NCBI GenBank assembly: GCA_946402785.1
Contig: CAMIXP010000001.1
Location: 1-33,715 of the forward strand
DNA: 33,715 bases
Direction: 5' to 3'
Origin: an uncultured Bacillales bacterium
Lineage (GTDB): Bacteria; Bacillota_I; Bacilli_A; RF39; UBA660
The position numbers and the translations under genes were made by a program. Shown here piece by piece: positions 3,435 to 28,137 of the stretch. The notes beneath the pieces were generated by a model that searched no databases, was not told the DNA's origin, and was given only the letters and a program-made list of their open reading frames with translations. How positions within the stretch are numbered: position 1 is the stretch's first letter; every line of letters begins with the position of its first letter.

Positions 3435-3510
3435 TGGAGCGAACGGGGGGAATTGAACCCCTATCACAGCCTTGGCAAGGCCGTATTCTAACCATTGAAC
3501 CACGTTCGCA
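3435..3510 (-). tRNA. tRNA-Gly (GCC)
   Basis: The reverse complement GCGAACG...CGTTCGC-T-CCA folds as a cloverleaf. Anticodon stem is CGGCC/GGCTG with loop TTGCCAA. The T-loop is TTCAATT. CCA is encoded. Confidence 0.9.
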
Positions 3511-3517
3511 AAAAAAA

Positions 3518-3591
3518 TGGAGGGGCCTACCGGATTTGAACCGGTGATCAGGGTGTTGCAGACCCACGCCTTACCGCTTGGCTAAAGCCCC
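3518..3591 (-). tRNA. tRNA-Cys (GCA)
   Basis: Reverse complement is GGGGCTT...AGGCCCC-T-CCA. Anticodon loop is CTGCAAC. T-arm is ACCGG-TTCAAAT-CCGGT. Discriminator is U73. CCA is encoded. Confidence 0.9.
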
Positions 3592-9232: not shown

Positions 9233-9863
9233 AAAAAAAAAGTAGATTCACTACTTTTAATTTTTTTGGAATTGTTTGGCTATCGCAATAGTAAACTTTG
9301 AGCCTTAGGTCAAGTAGGATTTCCCTAATTCTTACAAGTTCGTTACCAAACTTGCGGTTCCCCTTTACTAGAATTAATATGGTGTTACCATTCCATACGA
9401 CTTGATTACCACTTAGTGCCCACTGCAATCCTATTTTGAAATACATCCTAGGAGATTTCCTCTCCAACACTTTATTCCTAATTCTTTTTTGCAAAAACAA
9501 TTTCAAAGCGCAATACGAAATAGAAAGTGGCCGCTTCCTATTTGTAAGTTCGTTTATCCCAATGTTTCCACTCAAGACAGGCTACGCTGCACATAGCTTG
9601 CGCCACATTACAGGTTTTATCCCATTTCGTAACAAATCATCAGATGTTGTCCGTATAGATTTGCCACAAGAATGGGTCTCCACGAATAGTGGGTCGTGAT
9701 TCATATGCCATTATGAGTCGCCCAAAATTCTCATCTCCAGCATCCACCCCAAACTGGGCGTAAGAAGCAGACACCAAAGGTTTCACAGATATGCCCTTTA
9801 ACGATCTTTTAAACTCGTCTTCATAATAAAGTAATTGACTAGAATAATGTGCCATCAATTACG
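9233..9863 (-). ncRNA. large (~0.6 kb) structured non-coding RNA, class unresolved (OLE/ROOL-type candidates)
   Basis: Bounded by a perfect promoter (9870-9898) and an AAAAGUAG-ugaau-CUACUUUU hairpin plus U-run (9233-9259). Visibly more G+C-rich than the flanks. Many nested helices are present: 9855-62/9831-38; 9461-65/9451-55; and 9427-32/9316-21 enclosing 9370-76/9326-32 enclosing 9349-54/9335-40. The only ORFs lack an SD. Confidence 0.7.
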
Positions 9864-9869
9864 ATAAAC

Positions 9870-9898
9870 ATTATAGCATATTTTCAAAAAAATGTCAA
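9870..9898 (-). promoter_or_regulatory. consensus sigma-A promoter of the large ncRNA
   Basis: Minus strand reads TTGACA (9893-9898), a 17-nt spacer, then TGcTATAAT (9870-9878). Both hexamers are perfect and the extended -10 TG is present. Confidence 0.8.
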
Positions 9899-20723: not shown

Positions 20724-20754
20724 AAAAAGAAGAAAACCTTTTAGATTTTCTTCT
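20724..20754 (-). terminator. terminator of clpB
   Basis: Minus strand reads AGAAGAAAA-9 nt-TTTTCTTCT followed by TTTTG. The stop codon lies in the loop. Confidence 0.65.
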
Positions 20755-22846
20755 TGATAACGAACTTATTATTTACATAATTAACGATTACTGTATCATG
20801 TTCTTCTAATGATCCTTCAATCAGTAATCTAGATAAATCTACTTCTAGAGTTCTACCTACTAAACGTTTGAGTGGTCTTGCTCCAAAGTTGATATCATAT
20901 CCTTCTTCTATGAAGGCATCTCTTGCTTGATCTGTTAATTCAATATGAAGGTCTATATCTTTTAATCTTCCTTCGATTTCATGAATAATTTTATCTAGAA
21001 TCTTATTAATTGCTTCTTTTGTTAATGGATTAAAGATAATGATTTCATCAATACGGTTAATAAATTCTGGACGGAAGGTTTCTTTTACTTCTTTCATGAC
21101 TTCTTCTCTATCATTTTCTAAGATGTGTTCACTTCCTAAGTTAGATGTCATAATAATAATGGTATTTTTAAAGTCAACGGTTCTTCCGTTTGAATCTGTT
21201 ACACGTCCATCATCTAGAATTTGTAATAATAGATTTAATACTTCTGGATGAGCTTTTTCAATTTCATCAAATAAGACAATACTATATGGATTACGTCTTA
21301 CAGCTTCTGTTAATTGTCCTCCTTCTTCATATCCAACATATCCTGGAGGAGATCCAATTAATCTTGATACTGAGAATTTTTCCATGTATTCAGACATATC
21401 AATACGAACCATATGACGTTCATCATCAAATAATTCATAGGCTAGAGTTCTCGCTACTTCTGTTTTACCAACACCTGTAGGTCCAAGGAACATAAAACTT
21501 GCAATGGGTCTATTAGGATCTTTAATTCCACTACGAGATTTCATAATGGCATCGCTTACTAATTTTAGAGCTTCATCTTGTCCCATGACACGCTTTTTCA
21601 TTTCATCTTCTAGATGTAGGACTTTTTCTTTTTCAGATGCCATTAGTTTTGTTACGGGAATATTGGTCCATTTTGCGATAATACTACAAATATCTTGATC
21701 CGTAACGGTATCACTTAATAATTTGTTTTTCTCTACTTTATTTAATTCTTCTAGTTCTTTTTCTGCCTTTGGAATTTCTCCATGACGAAGAACGGCAGCT
21801 CTTTCGAGATCATATTTGTTCTCTGCTTGGTCGAGTTCAAATCTCAATTTTTCTAGTTCTTTTTTCTTTTTACTGATTTGATTGTTGATATCTTTTTCTT
21901 TATTCCATGCTTCTGTTAGCTCTTGTTCTTTTTGTTTCATAGTTGTTAATTCTCGATCGATGTCTTCTCTTCTATGAACGGATAGTTCATCTTTTTCTTT
22001 CTTAATAGCTTCTTTTTCTATTTCAAGTCTCATAATTCTATGTGTTAAGCTATCTAGTTCAAAAGGAACAGAGTCCATTTGTACACGAATCGTTGCACAA
22101 GCTTCATCAATTAAGTCAATTGCTTTATCTGGTAAGTATCGATCAGTTATATATCTATTTGATAATGTAGCAGCCGAAATAATAGCTTTATCTTGAATGG
22201 TTACTCCATGATGGATTTCAAATCTTTCTTTTAATCCTCTTAAAATAGTTATTGTATCTTCTACCGTTGGTTCTTCTACTTTAATCTTTTGGAAACGTCT
22301 TTCTAGAGCTCCATCTTTTTCAATATATTTTCTATATTCATTTAAAGTAGTGGCACCAATTACATGGATTTCTCCACGAGCAAGCATTGGTTTTAAGATA
22401 TTAGAAGTATCCATAGATCCTTCTGTTGCACCGGTTCCTACTATCATGTGAATTTCATCAATAAACATGATAATATCGCCTTCACTCTTTTTAACTTCGT
22501 TTAAAACATTTTTAAGTCTCTCTTCAAACTCTCCACGGTACTTTGCTCCTGCAACTAAGGCAGCCATATCTAGTTCCCAAATTTTTTTATTCTTTAGAGA
22601 ACTTGGTACATCTCCTTTTAGAATTCTTAAAGCTAATCCTTCTACAATGGCTGTTTTACCAACACCTGGTTCACCAATTAGAACTGGGTTGTTTTTCGTT
22701 TTTCTCGATAAGACCCTTGTAATACTACGAATTTCATCATCTCTTCCGATAACCGGATCAATTTTACCTGCTTTCGCATCTTCTACAATATCTCGTCCAT
22801 ATTTTTCTAATACATTTTCGTTATCTTCTTCTGGATAATTATACAT
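20741..22846 (-). CDS. clpB: ClpB-type AAA+ disaggregase lacking the N-terminal Clp_N domain
   Basis: Begins directly at D1 ([28 protein letters not shown]...[15 protein letters not shown]). Has a long M-domain coiled coil. D2 Walker A is [20 protein letters not shown] precedes the ATG. Confidence 0.9.
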
Positions 22847-22924: not shown

Positions 22925-22946
22925 AAAAAAAGAGTATTTCTACTCT
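22925..22946 (-). terminator. terminator after 22940..23503
   Basis: Minus strand reads AGAGTA-gaaa-TACTCT followed by T7. Confidence 0.75.
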
Positions 22947-23503
22947 TTTGTATATTCATCATATAACTCTTTTAAATGCTTTCTTTTTAGTACTTTATTG
23001 ATTCCATCTTTCGCAACTTCTGTATGAACTCTTTCAATGAGAGCTTTTGTTTTTGGATGAATAACACCTTTATCTTTTACTCGATTCCAGTAAGATAATT
23101 GATACTCTTTTGTCCAATTTTTTCCTTGATAGGTCATTCCTGCAGCATAAGAGTCACAAATTAACTCTAAGAAATACTTAAATGGCATCATAGGAGCTGG
23201 TGTTGGGGCATTATAATCATGCCAATACTCATAATGATGTTTATTATGATTCTTATGATGGATCCATGCGATGGAATAACCCGTTACTTCTTTACATTTA
23301 CGGATAGGACTATATTTTCCTTCATCAAAGTATCTAGCAGTTTCAAAAAATTCTACTGGTAAATATTTGGTCCAATCATGCCAGATTCCTTGCCATGGAA
23401 TTCCTACTTTACAGCAAAGACAAAATACTTTCCATCTATGTTTATTTACTACTTTAAAATGTCCCCATAATTTTTTGATTGTTAGTTTATATTCTTTTTC
23501 CAT
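22940..23503 (-). CDS. His-rich hypothetical protein (DUF5662-like)
   Basis: ATG at 23503 follows GGTGAAG. The upstream part of the track ORF covers a terminator and a TGtTATAAT -10 (23520-23528). Motifs are WHDWTKY and IHHKNHNKHHYEYWHD. Confidence 0.6.
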   Translation of the reverse strand: MEKEYKLTIKKLWGHFKVVNKHRWKVFCLCCKVGIPWQGIWHDWTKYLPVEFFETARYFDEGKYSPIRKCKEVTGYSIAWIHHKNHNKHHYEYWHDYNAPTPAPMMPFKYFLELICDSYAAGMTYQGKNWTKEYQLSYWNRVKDKGVIHPKTKALIERVHTEVAKDGINKVLKRKHLKELYDEYTKE

Positions 23504-23528
23504 AGACTTCACCATCTTCATTATAACA

Positions 23529-23551
23529 TAAAAAAAGAGCATTATTGCTCT
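23529..23551 (-). terminator. terminator after 23542..24213
   Basis: Minus strand reads AGAGCA-ataa-TGCTCT followed by T7. Confidence 0.7.
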
Positions 23552-24213
23552 TTCTTGTATTGTCTTGGTATTTTTTCAATTGGTAATTCTAATTCTCCAA
23601 AAATCACTTGAGGTGCTACATCTGTATCAACAAGTGCTTGTAATGCTTGTTTATAGTTAACATTGTTTTCATCCCCAGTACTCATTAATACAATGATTTT
23701 ATCATCTAATACCATAGCTCCACGGATACCTTGTTCTTCAAATGGAATTTGAATTTCTTCTTCTAAATCTACTGGATGACGTAATTCAAATTTACCTGTT
23801 AAGTCAGGGAAGTATTCACATACTTCGCTTCCTCTTTTTTTACTATCTAATAAAGCTTCGGTTAACACATCTTTATCTTTTGCGAACCAAACTTCTTTCA
23901 TATCTTCTTCTGGAATTTGTCTACCTTTCAAGAATTTTACTTCATTAAAAGGGATTCCACGTTCCAATAAAATATTTCTAAATTCTGGTCTTTTTAAAGG
24001 TCCGTTTTGCATAAGGATAATTTCTCTTTGTTTGTCTTCACTGATAAAGGCAGTATTAAATTGAACTGGTAACTTTCCTGCACCAATTCTTATATAAGAA
24101 CTACATCTTGCATATAGTGTATTATCTTTACTATCTTCTAAGCCATCGATTGCTGTATAAACTTCTTCTGGAAAATGTTGAATAGCCCAAATATCATATT
24201 GACTGTTTGCCAT
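23542..24213 (-). CDS. hypothetical cytoplasmic protein, 223 aa
   Basis: ATG at 24213 (MANSQYD...) follows GAGAGGGA. Upstream track codons overlap the GNAT terminator and a TGaTATAAT -10 (24242-24250). Confidence 0.7.
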   Translation of the reverse strand: MANSQYDIWAIQHFPEEVYTAIDGLEDSKDNTLYARCSSYIRIGAGKLPVQFNTAFISEDKQREIILMQNGPLKRPEFRNILLERGIPFNEVKFLKGRQIPEEDMKEVWFAKDKDVLTEALLDSKKRGSEVCEYFPDLTGKFELRHPVDLEEEIQIPFEEQGIRGAMVLDDKIIVLMSTGDENNVNYKQALQALVDTDVAPQVIFGELELPIEKIPRQYKKEQ

Positions 24214-24260
24214 ATAAATCCCTCTCTCATTGGTAGTTGTTATTATATCATATTTTCTTG

Positions 24261-24292
24261 AAAAAGAAAAGATAGAAAATAACTTTCTATCT
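24261..24292 (-). terminator. terminator after the GNAT gene
   Basis: Minus strand reads AGATAGAAA-gttat-TTTCTATCT followed by TTTCTTTTT. Confidence 0.65.
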
Positions 24293-25075
24293 TTTTTCAA
24301 TACTAAAATTAATTAAGTATCCTTCATCTTGATAGCCTACTTTTTTGTATGCATGATTGGAAGATGCATAGTTGTAATCGGTATAAAGAACGGGAACATA
24401 TCCATCTTCTAGCAGTTTTTTTGTTAAAGAATAGATCAAATACTGGCAATATCCTTTTCCTCTTTCTTCTTTATCCGTAAAGACATGCGTTACTTTTGCC
24501 ATATCATCTACTACTCCATATCCCGCCATAGAGACGATATCTCCATGATTATCTTTTAGGACATAGAAATTCTTTCCTTCTAGCCATCCCTCTACTTCTT
24601 CTAATGCTTCGCTTTGGGAAACTACTTTTCCATTATATAGTTCTTTTACATTTTGTCTCCAGAACTCAGCTAGTGTTACTTTATCTTCATGATTTGGTTT
24701 TACAAAGATTCCCTTTCCTTTTAATGGATTGATTGTTTCTTTACATGATAAGAATCCCATTTCTAAATAATTGGATGTTTCTTCTTTTTCTTTTAAATAT
24801 TCATATAATTCTTTTTTACAAGTAAAGTCATTTCTTCCTTTTTCATAGAATTCTTCTAGTACTTTCTCTACTTCTTTCTTTTTCTCTTCTGATAAATTGT
24901 CTTGTGTCCATATCCATGTAGGTAGTCCTGGCGCACTACGAGCGACGATATAAGACTTTAAATCAGAATGAATCATAGGACTATCTCCTGTTGCGATTAA
25001 AGAGATGACATAGAATAATTCTCTTTCTTGTTGGAAAAGATGAATCTTTTTTAAATCGTCTTTTTCAATTTTCAT
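24287..25075 (-). CDS. GNAT family N-acetyltransferase
   Basis: C-terminal acetyl-CoA motif ERGKGYCQYLIYSLTKKLLEDGY...NHAYKKVGY. ATG follows GGAGGGA. Confidence 0.8.
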   Translation of the reverse strand: MKIEKDDLKKIHLFQQERELFYVISLIATGDSPMIHSDLKSYIVARSAPGLPTWIWTQDNLSEEKKKEVEKVLEEFYEKGRNDFTCKKELYEYLKEKEETSNYLEMGFLSCKETINPLKGKGIFVKPNHEDKVTLAEFWRQNVKELYNGKVVSQSEALEEVEGWLEGKNFYVLKDNHGDIVSMAGYGVVDDMAKVTHVFTDKEERGKGYCQYLIYSLTKKLLEDGYVPVLYTDYNYASSNHAYKKVGYQDEGYLINFSIEKR

Positions 25076-25086
25076 GGGAATCCCTC

Positions 25087-25881
25087 CTAAATTCTTACAT
25101 TCATTAAGTTAGAACTACTATATTTTTTTAATCCTCTATTAAATACCAAGAAAGCAATGGTAATAAATAGAAGGGTACCAATTATGATATAGATCAAATA
25201 AATAAGTTTAAAATCACTAATTAATTGGATTGGTACATAGGCTGTTATTCCTAATGGTAAGATTGTATAAAATAGTATTTTAATGGCTCCTTTAAAGATA
25301 CCTTCTGGATAGGTTGCGAAGTTTGTCATTAAACTATTGATCGTATTAGCAATTACTTCTGTTCTACCGAACCAGAAAGATAGGGATGAAATGATAACAG
25401 AGATGCTTGCTACTACGAGTCCTCCACAAATACCACATAAGATAAATAATAGTAAGTTTTTGATGGTTAATCCAAAGATGGTAATCATGATCAATCCATA
25501 AATGATATCTCCTAGTGCAGATACTTCTACACTACTCGTAATACACTGAATCAAAACATTTTTTGGTTGTACTAAGTAGTTGTCTAATTTTCCACAGTTA
25601 ATGGTTTCTGATAATTCAAAGGAATCTCGGAAAAAGAATCTAGAAATGCCATATGTGAAAGATGCTAGTCCCCATAATAGAATAACTTGTTTAAAGGTAT
25701 ATCCTCCTACATCTTCTTTTAAAGAGTATAGGATAATCCATTGAATGATAAAGCATGCATTGTTTAAAATCATAAATAAGATGTTTGATACAAAAGTAAC
25801 TTTATTTAACATTTCTCTTTGAAGAGCATATCGAATAGATTGCCCTGTTACTTTTAATTGATTTTTAACCTCCGTTAACAT
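25087..25881 (-). CDS. ABC-2-type permease (ABC2_membrane_6/DUF990-like), subunit 2
   Basis: Six-TM protein of 264 aa. Overlaps the upstream paralogous permease by 17 nt. Confidence 0.7.
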   Translation of the reverse strand: MLTEVKNQLKVTGQSIRYALQREMLNKVTFVSNILFMILNNACFIIQWIILYSLKEDVGGYTFKQVILLWGLASFTYGISRFFFRDSFELSETINCGKLDNYLVQPKNVLIQCITSSVEVSALGDIIYGLIMITIFGLTIKNLLLFILCGICGGLVVASISVIISSLSFWFGRTEVIANTINSLMTNFATYPEGIFKGAIKILFYTILPLGITAYVPIQLISDFKLIYLIYIIIGTLLFITIAFLVFNRGLKKYSSSNLMNVRI

Positions 25882-26656
25882 TTAATTTTTTCACCCCCTT
25901 CTTGTATATTAAATGTGCAATCAACCAAGTAATTCCTAAATAAATTACTTGAATGATGATGATTTCTAATAATTTTTCATTACTATAATCTACAAATAAT
26001 TTTGCTGGTCCATAACTAACTACATAGATAGGACTATATTTGGCAATTGGTTGTAGGAATTGTGGAAAGAATTCAATGGGGAAAATGGTTCCTACCACTA
26101 AGATTAGTTTACTATATAACCAGAAGAATGGATTTGCATCTTCTATAAAGAATGATACTAAACCAATCGTTGTAATGATTAAGATATTGATAATCGTTGC
26201 AAGTGCACAAGATAGGATCACTCCTAGTATTCCTAGAATTGTTAAATGTGGAAATTCTCCTAAGAATAATAATCCTAGTAATATACCTAAAATCGTTATT
26301 AATACAAACTTTAAGGTTGTAATTCCTAAATGGCTAAATAAACTGTATTCAACATAGTTATATGGTTTTGTTATATTATAGGTAATATTACCACTTCTTA
26401 CATCATTACAAATCTTTTTACATAGTTTTCTTCCTCCTAAACTCATCCATAAGATTTCTGTTACAATAACATACCAAATCATTTGATTCATGGTGTATCC
26501 TTTGATTACTTCATTTGGATTACTATAGATATATTTCCATAGATTTAAGAAGATAAATATCATGATACAGTAACTTACAAATCCTACTAAGATATCAAAT
26601 GTATATTGTAAGTTTGTCATTAATTCTGATTTAAAGATGTATAGATATTTTTTCAT
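25865..26656 (-). CDS. ABC-2-type permease, subunit 1
   Basis: Six-TM protein of 263 aa. Its start overlaps the ATPase stop (TAATG). Confidence 0.7.
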   Translation of the reverse strand: MKKYLYIFKSELMTNLQYTFDILVGFVSYCIMIFIFLNLWKYIYSNPNEVIKGYTMNQMIWYVIVTEILWMSLGGRKLCKKICNDVRSGNITYNITKPYNYVEYSLFSHLGITTLKFVLITILGILLGLLFLGEFPHLTILGILGVILSCALATIINILIITTIGLVSFFIEDANPFFWLYSKLILVVGTIFPIEFFPQFLQPIAKYSPIYVVSYGPAKLFVDYSNEKLLEIIIIQVIYLGITWLIAHLIYKKGVKKLNVNGG

Positions 26657-27636
26657 TATTTATCACCATCTTTATAAATTTCACTAATGATTTGTTCTAG
26701 AGGAACATTTGATATATTAATATCAATCATATTATCTGGATTTAATAATTTAATAGCATCAGAAATACTTTTCTTCTTTAAATCTACTTCTAATTTGAGA
26801 TTGTAATCTTTGTCTTTTAAAATATTAATTCCTTCTTCACTATCTAAATTTACTTTTTCTTTCATTTTTGCATCGATTATTTTTTTATTTAAATAGTGAT
26901 ATTTTAAATTATCCATCGTATCATCTAATACAATTTGTCCTTTATTAACAATGATGACTCTTTTACATAATTTCTCAATATCGGATATATCATGAGAGGT
27001 AAGAACTACTGTTGTTTTATATTCTTTATTCATCCGTTTAATAAGTGTTCTTATTTTTTCTTTTACAACAGGGTCTAATCCGATTGTTGGTTCATCTAGG
27101 AATAATACTTTTGGTTCGTGGATTAAAGATGCCACAATCTCACATCGTATTCTTTGACCTAAACTTAAATTACGTACTGGTGTATTCATAAAGTCATCTA
27201 ATTCGAATAATTCCCTTAATTCTTCTATTTTTTTCTCAACTTGTTTTTCAGGAATATCATAGATGGCTCCAAAGAATTTAAAGTTATCATACGGTGTTAG
27301 ATGTGTCCATAATTGTTCTTTTTGTCCAAATACACATCCGATTTCATAGGCAAGTTTCTTTCTATCTTTCGTAGGATCATATCCTAAGACGTCTATTTTT
27401 CCTCCATCTGGGAAGAGAATTCCCGTCATCATTTTGATAGATGTAGATTTACCAGCACCATTTGGTCCAATGAATGCGATCATTTCACCCTTCTCTACAG
27501 AGAATGAAATGTCTTTAACAGCTTTGATGATATTATATTTGGGTTTGATGAAAGACTTTAAGCTTCCTTTTAGTCCTTTTTCTTTTACCTTAACTTTAAA
27601 AGTTTTGGATAAATTCTCTACTGTAATTACAGCCAT
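26656..27636 (-). CDS. ABC transporter ATP-binding protein with C-terminal extension
   Basis: Walker A is GPNGAGKST. Signature is LSLGQRIR. Walker B is LFLDEPTIGLD. The track start at 27645 is GTG inside the SD. ATG 27636 lies 8 nt after AAGGAG. Confidence 0.9.
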   Translation of the reverse strand: MAVITVENLSKTFKVKVKEKGLKGSLKSFIKPKYNIIKAVKDISFSVEKGEMIAFIGPNGAGKSTSIKMMTGILFPDGGKIDVLGYDPTKDRKKLAYEIGCVFGQKEQLWTHLTPYDNFKFFGAIYDIPEKQVEKKIEELRELFELDDFMNTPVRNLSLGQRIRCEIVASLIHEPKVLFLDEPTIGLDPVVKEKIRTLIKRMNKEYKTTVVLTSHDISDIEKLCKRVIIVNKGQIVLDDTMDNLKYHYLNKKIIDAKMKEKVNLDSEEGINILKDKDYNLKLEVDLKKKSISDAIKLLNPDNMIDINISNVPLEQIISEIYKDGDK

Positions 27637-27709
27637 ACTAATCACTCCTTTCTCAATATTTTGTTTTCATAGATATGATCATCAAAACCATTATAAACTA
27701 TTTATCGAC

Positions 27710-27797
27710 AAAAAAACACGGCAAAACACTTATTAAGTGACTCCGTGTTTACGTGTAGGTATTCCCCTATGCAGCTCGCTTCCTTATGCATACTCAC
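27710..27797 (-). promoter_or_regulatory. leader unit 1: conserved RNA element plus intrinsic terminator (candidate riboswitch/attenuator)
   Basis: RNA sense: GUGAGUAUGCAUAAGGAAGCGAGCUGCA-UAGG-ggaaua-CCUA-CACGUAAACACGGAGUCACUUaauAAGUGuuuugCCGUGU-U7. It is near-identical in its core to unit 2. Confidence 0.6.
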
Positions 27798-27823
27798 TTT
27801 TATCTATGAAAACTCGTCGAGTT

Positions 27824-27920
27824 AAAAAAAATACGGGCACTACTAAACTAGTAGTGACTCCGTATTAACGTGTAAGATTCTTCATCTTTATGCAGCTCGT
27901 TTCCTTATGCATACTCACTC
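27824..27920 (-). promoter_or_regulatory. leader unit 2: second copy of the conserved element plus terminator
   Basis: RNA sense: GUGAGUAUGCAUAAGGAAACGAGCUGCA-UAAGAU-gaaga-AUCUUA-CACGUUAAUACGGAGUCACUACUAguuUAGUAGUGcCCGUAU-U8. Confidence 0.6.
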
Positions 27921-27931
27921 GACTTGTCTAC

Positions 27932-27960
27932 ATCATATCTCATAAACAATTGTTTGTCAA
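27932..27960 (-). promoter_or_regulatory. sigma-A promoter of the ABC-2 operon leader
   Basis: Minus strand reads TTGACA-N17-TATGAT. It predicts a ~290-nt 5'UTR. Confidence 0.65.
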
Positions 27961-28012: not shown

Positions 28013-28041
28013 TTGTCATTTCAAGGAAAAACTGATAAAAT
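28013..28041 (+). promoter_or_regulatory. promoter of tRNA-His
   Basis: TTGTCA-N17-TAAAAT with an extended TGa, ending 20 nt before the tRNA. Confidence 0.55.
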
Positions 28042-28060: not shown

Positions 28061-28137
28061 GGCGCCGTTGGTGAAGTGGTTAACACGCTAGTTTGTGGCA
28101 CTAGTATGCGTGAGTTCGATTCTCACACGACGCCCCA
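28061..28137 (+). tRNA. tRNA-His (GUG) with encoded G-1 and CCA
   Basis: Anticodon stem is CTAGT/ACTAG with loop TTGTGGC. T-arm is GTGAG-TTCGATT-CTCAC. The extra 5' G pairs with C73. There is one C-A mismatch in the acceptor stem. Confidence 0.85.

Follow-up and report, generated by a model that had tools for sequence, protein, structure and literature searches.

We have identified a tandem regulatory RNA in the leader of an ATP-binding cassette (ABC) exporter operon of an uncultured Bacillales bacterium. The window, which is the whole stretch of DNA analysed, comprises 33,715 nt (33.7 kb; GCA_946402785.1, contig CAMIXP010000001.1), and the element lies on its minus strand, where positions 27960-27634 hold a promoter, two homologous ~67-nt units each with an intrinsic terminator, and then the start of the ABC operon. 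We are confident that the motif is genuine, a conserved cis-regulatory RNA whose platform is a terminator. Judging from its sequence features, the leader is likely to consist of two complete riboswitches of one uncatalogued class in series, each acting as a transcriptional ON switch, and we infer that the effector is a small molecule.

The original prediction, made from the letters of the window, described tandem duplicated leader units, each with its own terminator, ahead of an ABC-2 exporter, and this layout is borne out on the minus strand. Transcription probably starts near 27926-27924, downstream of a sigma-A-type promoter at 27960-27932 (-35 TTGACA 27960-27955, 17-nt spacer, -10 TATGAT 27937-27932) that matches the consensus at 11 of 12 positions. 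It is the sole promoter-like site on the leader strand, and an equivalent promoter is present in two relatives (L003 and L007). The predicted near-identical core of ~32 nt is found as a direct repeat of 31 nt with 97% identity (27889-27919 versus 27768-27798), and a second shared stretch, a 22-nt 3′ (linker) segment, is 91% identical; terminator bases are repeated too. Between the shared stretches the sequences of the two units diverge with pairing kept, as had been proposed for a second hairpin. The 30-nt core has exactly two copies in the window, with 0 expected from shuffles, and a covariance model scan of the window returned just the two units, both in one 5′ untranslated region (UTR). Additionally, the 285-nt leader folds more stably than its own shuffles (z = -4.5). 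About 60 nt separate the U-run of the second terminator from the Shine-Dalgarno sequence (AAGGAG, 27650-27645) and start codon (ATG, 27636-27634) of the ABC ATPase gene, for which relatives have the same called start.

A consensus structure obtained with RNAalifold and explicit pair counts has helix P1 enclosing P2, P3 and P4, which gives a four-helix junction of ~67 nt. P1 reads (A)GUGA/UCAC(U), and one G separates it from P2, a 6-bp helix whose loop always starts U(A), ends AGC and accepts an inserted hairpin of variable length. P3 has 4 bp, mostly GGGN/NCCU, and leads into the junction ACA; P4 is CGU/ACG with a 3-8-nt loop, followed by the junction GAG and the 3′ strand of P1. Conservation of at least 97% is seen at about 27 positions (GUGAG, U.A, AGC, G.G, C.UACAC, GGAGUCAC), and the helices vary freely. 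This comparison amends parts of the original prediction. The proposed AUGCA/UGCAU hairpin exists, but it has 6 bp (UAUGCA/UGCAUA) and not 5, and the conserved linker is present but is not unpaired, since ACACGU-N-ACGGAG holds a fourth helix, P4 (CGU/ACG). Because the linker contains P4, the aptamer is a four-helix junction and not the three-way junction that had been suggested.

In the window, the unit 1 aptamer spans 27919-27853 (model match 74.6 bits, E = 9e-20), with P1 at 27919-27915/27857-27853 (AGUGA/UCACU), P2 at 27913-27908/27894-27889 with a loop that reads UA..AGC, P3 at 27888-27884/27878-27874 and P4 at 27870-27868/27863-27861; its conserved junction nucleotides are G27914, ACA 27873-27871 and GAG 27860-27858. 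The unit 2 aptamer spans 27798-27736 (75.0 bits, E = 7e-20), with P1 at 27798-27794/27740-27736 and a possible sixth pair A27799-U27735, P2 at 27792-27787/27773-27768, P3 at 27767-27765/27759-27757 and P4 at 27753-27751/27746-27744. Both belong to a family in which two subtypes can be told apart. Subtype A reads GUGAGU...ACACGU...ACGGAG, and subtype B reads GUGAGG AGAUAUAAGC..GUGAGCUAUCUC GGG..ACACAA..UUGGAGUCACGAAUA (examples at L025 1957-2041, L020 5332-5422 on the minus strand, L083 699-789 and L088 566-657). Subtype B mostly precedes genes for small proteins of ~135-205 aa (such as the clusters 'unk205' and 'unk269') and is sometimes found in tandem with a subtype A unit.

Covariation among homologues supports this fold. 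In the set of units found by a sequence pattern, 98% of 1872 pair cells are paired, the covariation score was reached by none of 500 shuffles, and sliding the partner columns by 1-3 positions lowers pairing to 22-50%. P2 pairs in every sequence (100%) and shows double changes at each of its 6 pairs, and compensation in this first hairpin is visible already in close relatives (AUGCA/UGCAU, GUGCA/UGCAC, GUGUA/UACAC). The pattern imposed invariance on GUGAGU, ACACGU and ACGGAGUCAC. As the letters of P1 and P4 were thereby forced, the variants found by the covariance model are the fair test of these two helices, and they include a change of P4 from CGU/ACG to CAA/UUG in 13-21 sequences and changes of P1 from GUGA/UCAC to GCGA/UCGC and ACGA/UCGU. 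In the alignments as a whole, pairing holds for 97-98% of pair cells, and none of the four helices lacks compensatory changes. The covariation foreseen for homologues is therefore massive for P2 and P3, and comes through rarer variants for P1 and P4.

The terminators indicate how the element is likely to act. Terminator 1 (27866-27824) consists of a hairpin at 27866-27830 (-17.7 kcal/mol) and a seven-U tract at 27830-27824, and its 5′ arm includes the 3′ strands of unit 1 P4 (ACG) and P1 (UCAC). Terminator 2 (27750-27710) consists of a hairpin at 27750-27714 (-13.0 kcal/mol) running into a U-tract at 27716-27710, and its 5′ arm likewise includes the P4 and P1 3′ strands of unit 2. Each unit thus has the hairpin and U-tract that had been anticipated, with the U-tracts at the predicted sites of premature ends. 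Of the distinct units whose 3′ sequence is long enough, 140 of 140 have a hairpin beside a U-run (mean -17.4 kcal/mol), and in all 140 the terminator 5′ arm re-uses the 3′ strand of aptamer P4 (ACG), P1 (UCAC) or both, so that the proposed GUGA/UCAC alternative between junction and terminator holds. The variable bases directly 5′ of ACGG covary with the terminator 3′ end. For the aptamer part alone, the minimum-energy fold is exactly the four-helix model (-12.4 kcal/mol for unit 1, -11.3 for unit 2); when the terminator 3′ arm is added, the minimum flips to the terminator with P1 and P4 open (-25.5 and -22.2 kcal/mol, respectively). As the terminator 5′ arm re-uses these aptamer strands, we conclude that the logic is that of an ON switch, and the layout is standard for a kinetically controlled ON riboswitch.

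We propose that the first ~67 nt of each unit would fold during transcription into the P1-P4 four-helix junction. A bound ligand would then keep P1 (GUGA/UCAC) and P4 (CGU/ACG) closed long enough for the polymerase to escape, since their 3′ strands would not be free for the terminator 5′ arm and the polymerase would read on. Without ligand, the more stable terminator would form and transcription would stop at about 27824 (unit 1) or about 27710 (unit 2).

The motif is widespread among gut-associated Bacilli. A scan of 185,579 species genomes with the pattern GTGAGT-N30-60-ACACGT-N3-8-ACGGAGTCAC gave 95 stretches, and all but two, which are GC-rich chance matches, have the same architecture and a terminator. 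The genome matches are gut, rumen and faecal metagenome-assembled genomes (MAGs) labelled Bacilli, Erysipelotrichaceae, 'Tenericutes', Ca. Onthousia, Ca. Aphodocola and Ca. Faecimonas; in the NCBI taxonomy, Ca. Onthousia and Ca. Aphodocola belong to Bacilli incertae sedis. The same pattern was run on JGI/ENA metagenomes, and a covariance model trained on 104 distinct units added about 40 more divergent units in genome loci and at least 132 units in metagenome loci. In total there are at least 278 units in at least 196 distinct regulatory regions; totals that include metagenomes are lower bounds, and the counts of regions given from here on are among the matches listed. The metagenome contigs in this set come from human gut, rumen and one activated-sludge sample, and no cultured carrier appears in either the genome or the metagenome matches. 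A same-strand open reading frame (ORF) lies within 330 nt downstream in 184 of the 196 regions, and the other regions stop at contig edges. The search for homologues that had been suggested therefore places an ORF on the same strand downstream wherever a region has enough sequence.

Close relatives of the window are numerous: its ATPase has many relatives with 88-100% identity in MAGs labelled 'Bacilli bacterium', and their contigs share the tandem leader. Six AT-rich motif loci (L008, L011, L028, L035, L084 and L085) come from MAGs labelled 'uncultured Muribaculaceae bacterium' and carry gene types like those of Bacilli, and the labels of these six bins look wrong on this sequence evidence.

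The tandem arrangement of whole units, to which the original prediction drew attention, is itself a recurrent feature. In 65 of 196 regions (33%) there are two units, spaced by 27-160 nt and each with a terminator of its own, and the share reaches 47 of 77 (61%) before the ABC operon versus 10 of 44 before GNAT genes. Many loci carry unit-gene-unit-gene arrays, and heterotypic tandems of subtypes A and B occur. Tandem complete riboswitches are established and act as two independent gates in series. By analogy, we infer that the window tandem would behave in the same way, with both gates needed to reach the exporter operon and read-through scaling as one occupancy multiplied by the other; such multiplication would lower leak and steepen the dose response. 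Welz and Breaker reportedly described, in 2007, two complete thiamine pyrophosphate (TPP) riboswitches in tandem before Bacillus anthracis tenA, with a more digital response. Like the present leader, that arrangement places two full aptamer and terminator units of a single class in the same 5′ UTR, and either can stop transcription. However, the TPP riboswitches are OFF switches and their tandems are said to be rare exceptions in the class, whereas the motif described here is an apparent ON switch with tandems in a third of its regions and in 61% of those before the ABC operon.

In the window, each unit with its terminator is additionally bracketed by an inverted repeat that could form a long-range helix. 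Around unit 1 and terminator 1 the arms are GUCGAGU 27923-27917 and ACUCGAC 27822-27816; the 5′ arm lies 2-3 nt from the predicted transcript start and overlaps the outer P1 pairs. This helix is kept in the tandem clade, with GUCAA/UUGAC variants in singleton units. Around unit 2 and terminator 2 the arms are GUUUUCAUAGAUA 27813-27801 and UAUCUAUGAAAAC 27675-27663, with 13 perfect pairs, and the 3′ arm stops about 12 nt before the Shine-Dalgarno sequence. The unit 2 helix, with 11-18 bp and compensatory changes, occurs in about 18 relatives of the window's clade and is absent from the wider motif family. We rejected a general long-range helix around every unit, as in such AT-rich sequence only the clade of the window exceeds background. 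These helices could form only after terminator read-through and, speculatively, might serve as a 5′-terminal stabilising structure on full-length transcripts.

The genes under the motif are varied but coherent, which is as expected for a single ligand acting through near-identical RNAs. In the window they comprise an ABC ATPase (26656-27636), two ABC2_membrane_6 (PF06182) permeases (25865-26656 and 25087-25881), a 262-aa GNAT (24287-25075) and, probably as further operon members, a 252-aa uncharacterised protein (23542-24300) and a protein (22940-23542) that shares a BLAST cluster with a Pfam-assigned DUF5662 member, all on the minus strand. The ABC2_membrane_6-type transporter that had been expected downstream is thus present, and the gene order of this operon is repeated in relatives. 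A second, divergent ABC operon subfamily is also under the motif (L024, L069, L072, L081 and L023), with permeases about 27% and an ATPase about 46% identical to those of the window. As an RNA-blind control, four ABC operons were chosen by permease homology alone (51-68% identity to a 'Clostridia'-labelled member), and in all four the motif, in divergent form, lies directly upstream of the ATPase gene, in agreement with the proposed association between the RNA and this transporter type.

Across the 184 regions with a first ORF, the main groups cover 166 and the other 18 fall into minor or unclassified clusters. The ABC ATPase, with two PF06182 permeases, is the commonest first gene (77 regions), followed by an Acetyltransf_3-type GNAT (SpeG/AAC(6′)-like; 44), 'unk205' (15), 'unk269' (7), a class I methyltransferase (5), an S51 peptidase (4), a leucine leader with leuA (3) and a 135-aa uncharacterised protein (3), with two regions each for a PNP_UDP_1 phosphorylase, an S66 (MccF/LdcA-like) peptidase, an MFS transporter and 'unk136'. 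A kinase-like protein comes first in one region, and farther down some operons lie genes for a class-C-like serine hydrolase, an MTA/SAH-nucleosidase-like protein and a LOG-like protein. No usable Pfam or NCBIfam match was found at lax thresholds for unk205, unk269, unk135, unk136, unk221 and related clusters. The GNATs have their closest solved relatives among AAC(6′) enzymes and SpeG/diamine N-acetyltransferases, and the GNAT arrays reach six paralogues per operon (L033 and L095). Five loci (L033, L095, L014, L020 and L037) have four to six Acetyltransf_3-type GNATs in a row, often with a class I methyltransferase and an ABC-2 exporter.

The leuA cases have a distinctive architecture. In L049, L064 and L076 a leucine-rich leader ORF (NLLGLLLRL / NLLLNLLLRL*; MFIVSNTTNLLLNLLLRL*) follows right after the motif terminator and is itself followed by a truncated leuA (558.7 bits against NF002086, cut-off 532). 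The leader has its own alternative hairpins (GGUAAUAGGU / AGACCUAUUAC / AGUAAUAGGUCU) and a U-tract/terminator, and by these sequence features it is apparently a classical leader-peptide attenuator in series with the motif (L049 3545-3725; L064 6232-6075 on the minus strand; L076 6641-6835; also L044 5077-5165). A T-box in tandem with the motif before leuA was considered and rejected, as the T-boxes of L044, L049 and L076 lie about 2 kb upstream, before metG.

No Rfam 15 family was found for the motif at the gathering threshold in the whole window and 13 loci, and a search of the leader and of a subtype B+A tandem at E≤10 gave only chance-level matches to snoRNA and miRNA models. The comparison takes in ykkC/ppGpp/PRPP, the guanidine classes, T-box, purine, preQ1, glycine and THF, as far as Rfam 15 has them. 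The earlier impression that the core matches no known riboswitch class therefore holds against Rfam 15 even at that lax threshold. We also found no description of the motif in the open-access literature on riboswitches with GNAT, ABC-2, microcin C or polyamine associations or on orphan motifs. Within Rfam 15 and that literature, its status as a candidate new riboswitch class, with putative ligand binding, is well supported. The motif seems to have escaped notice because all of its carriers are uncultured gut, rumen or faecal Bacilli.

Since the same RNA stands before about 200 gene sets, it most likely senses one small molecule, and the controlled genes suggest two leading candidates, a toxic amine-bearing compound and a (p)ppGpp-type alarmone. 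Neither accounts for the whole regulon. An amine-bearing toxin, for instance a polyamine or diamine, an aminoglycoside-like compound or a peptidyl or aminoacyl-nucleoside antibiotic, is a possible ligand, though one we would hesitate to favour; here the RNA would turn on acetylation, methylation, hydrolysis and export of the compound. Toxic ligands such as fluoride and guanidine are as a rule sensed by ON switches that precede detoxification and efflux genes, and the gene set under the motif is the classic picture of a detoxification ON switch. GNAT genes come first in 44 of 184 regions with up to 6 paralogues per operon, their nearest solved relatives are AAC(6′) and SpeG/diamine N-acetyltransferases, and they are accompanied by methyltransferases, MccF-like S66 and S51 peptidases, the class-C-like serine hydrolase, the kinase-like protein, MFS transporters and ABC-2 exporters. 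However, an amine leaves the leuA and leucine attenuator cases unaccounted for, and so many enzyme types under one sensor argue for a general signal and not a single substrate. Substrate assignments for the GNATs and methyltransferases are also weak, as every match falls under curated cut-offs.

Two known classes come near this interpretation and were rejected as identities. Guanidine-IV (mepA) and its orphan variant Gd4v, which is enriched in gut metagenomes and has an orphan ligand (Lenkeit et al. 2022, PMC9788692), resemble the motif as ON switches that work through a Rho-independent terminator and are associated with a GNAT N-acetyltransferase and an efflux pump. Their fold is different, with two hairpins joined by a loop-loop pseudoknot, the second hairpin being the terminator, whereas the motif has a four-helix junction and a separate terminator; this excludes identity. 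Their gene sets (transaminase, MATE and sugE) also differ from the ABC-2 and GNAT arrays found here. The spermidine riboswitch, a variant of SAM-I, acts as an OFF switch on polyamine biosynthesis genes (Salvail et al. 2023, PMC10853860). Its ligand would be of one class with that of the motif if the amine or polyamine interpretation were right, and its SAM-I fold and OFF logic led us to reject it, as the motif has no SAM-I likeness and is an apparent ON switch before acetyltransferase and exporter genes.

A (p)ppGpp-type alarmone is a tentative alternative ligand, and it would make the motif a second, structurally unrelated class of ppGpp riboswitch. The known class, ykkC subtype 2a, is a transcriptional ON switch with an intrinsic terminator in Firmicutes; it controls three-gene ABC operons of an ATPase and two permeases of unassigned function (natA, COG3694 and COG4587), and about 40% of its members before branched-chain amino acid genes are in tandem with a leucine T-box (Sherlock, Sudarsan & Breaker 2018, PMC6003355). 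The motif shares with it the terminator-using ON logic, a main target made of an ATPase and two paralogous PF06182 permeases, and a position in series with a leucine sensor before a branched-chain amino acid gene, for which the motif, terminator, leucine attenuator and leuA of L049, L064 and L076 are a direct functional parallel. The peptidases, nucleosidases and LOG-like gene also fit a starvation response. The operon parallel is weakened in that it presumes COG3694/COG4587 to correspond to PF06182. In addition, the leuA cases number just three, and the motif has no sequence or structure likeness to ykkC: it has no ykkC match at E≤10 and forms a ~67-nt four-helix junction. The ppGpp class has no counterpart to the motif's large GNAT, methyltransferase and peptidase regulon; the GNAT arrays are the second commonest association of the motif, and the word 'acetyltransferase' appears 0 times in PMC6003355. 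For orthology comparison with a ykkC-2a natA operon, plasmids were searched with tblastn, with only distant matches in cyanobacteria, Vibrio and Bacillus, and a protein search from the divergent permease returned motif-bearing lineages only and did not reach organisms with ppGpp-I. By analogy with the known class, a shared ligand is a hypothesis only, and the fuller proposal, in which the motif would be a 'ppGpp-II' class of uncultured gut and rumen Bacilli, often as a double gate, coupling the stringent alarmone to the ABC-2 exporter, the GNAT arrays and leuA with its leucine attenuator, is rather improbable.

Several observations weigh against the riboswitch interpretation itself. Two of the alignments (A2 and A3) were model-fitted, which biases their pair counts towards the structure, even though the variants are plain in the sequences themselves. 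The P1 core (GUGA/UCAC) is near-invariant, so that P1 covariation rests on a handful of sequences, and the fifth P1 pair is unpaired in 15-34% of units. The regulon is heterogeneous, and no single ligand obviously fits an exporter, acetyltransferases, methyltransferases, peptidases, nucleosidases and leuA together. All carriers are uncultured MAGs or metagenome contigs, and the motif was analysed here in their DNA sequence. Finally, the fold, the conservation and the overlap with the terminator are compatible with a trans-acting RNA-binding protein that stabilises the fold, and do not separate such a protein from a small ligand.

We consider it unlikely, although worth weighing, that the four-helix element is bound by a trans-acting antiterminator protein, or by some other macromolecule, that holds P1 and P4 and blocks the terminator. 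Frequent first genes such as 'unk205' (15 regions) and 'unk269' (7) could encode regulators of this kind. However, no CAT/PRD, ANTAR, PyrR, TRAP or similar RNA-binding family was found in the examined neighbourhoods, and many unrelated operons are served by several copies of the motif per genome. Variable helices around a compact junction, with about 27 nucleotides invariant in junctions and loops, are, moreover, what a metabolite aptamer usually shows.

Ribosome-mediated attenuation is very improbable. An in-frame AUG in P2 opens a short ORF in both window units (MHKETSCIKMKNLTR* in unit 1), and translation of such a leader peptide could in principle control the terminators. However, an AUG stands at this position in 107 of 233 units and a non-start triplet in 76, the 233 units yield 191 different N-terminal 12-mers with many very early stops, and no Shine-Dalgarno sequence is suitably spaced from the AUG. 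Variation keeps pairing and not coding, and we rejected a leader-peptide attenuator on these grounds. A dispersed repeat without regulatory role, of the type of a miniature inverted-repeat transposable element, can be dismissed with near certainty: several copies per genome and the unit-gene-unit-gene arrays would suit it, but the 33.7-kb window has two copies, both in a single 5′ UTR, every region or unit with enough sequence has a same-strand ORF downstream and a terminator, terminal inverted repeats are lacking, the units covary and all four RNA-blind operons carry the motif, so that units are confined to the 5′ UTRs of a defined gene set and not, as the original prediction had allowed, unlinked to gene starts.

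New riboswitch classes that combine hundreds of members with clean covariation have become scarce, and the motif offers a compact aptamer of ~67 nt with which to look for a ligand. The regulon that it marks out takes in about 200 gene sets of gut bacteria that are abundant. Identifying the ligand would also give a function to the PF06182 exporter family, whose link to the ppGpp riboswitch, if these permeases are the COGs we presume them to be, has been unexplained since 2018. Additionally, homotypic tandems in 33% of regions provide a natural system for understanding how serial riboswitches sharpen responses.

Other features of the window include a tRNA-His gene at 28062-28137 on the plus strand, divergent from the leader promoter and with a promoter-like site of its own at 28013-28041, and tRNA-Gly and tRNA-Cys genes at 3435-3591 on the minus strand. 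A full-length OLE (ornate large extremophilic) RNA lies at 9260-9871 on the minus strand (399 bits against Rfam RF01071). A gene for a ClpB-like protein of 701 aa (20741-22846, minus strand) aligns to positions 149-852 only of the ClpB model, and its product is therefore without the N-terminal domain; in several relatives the ClpB-like gene comes after the exporter operon.

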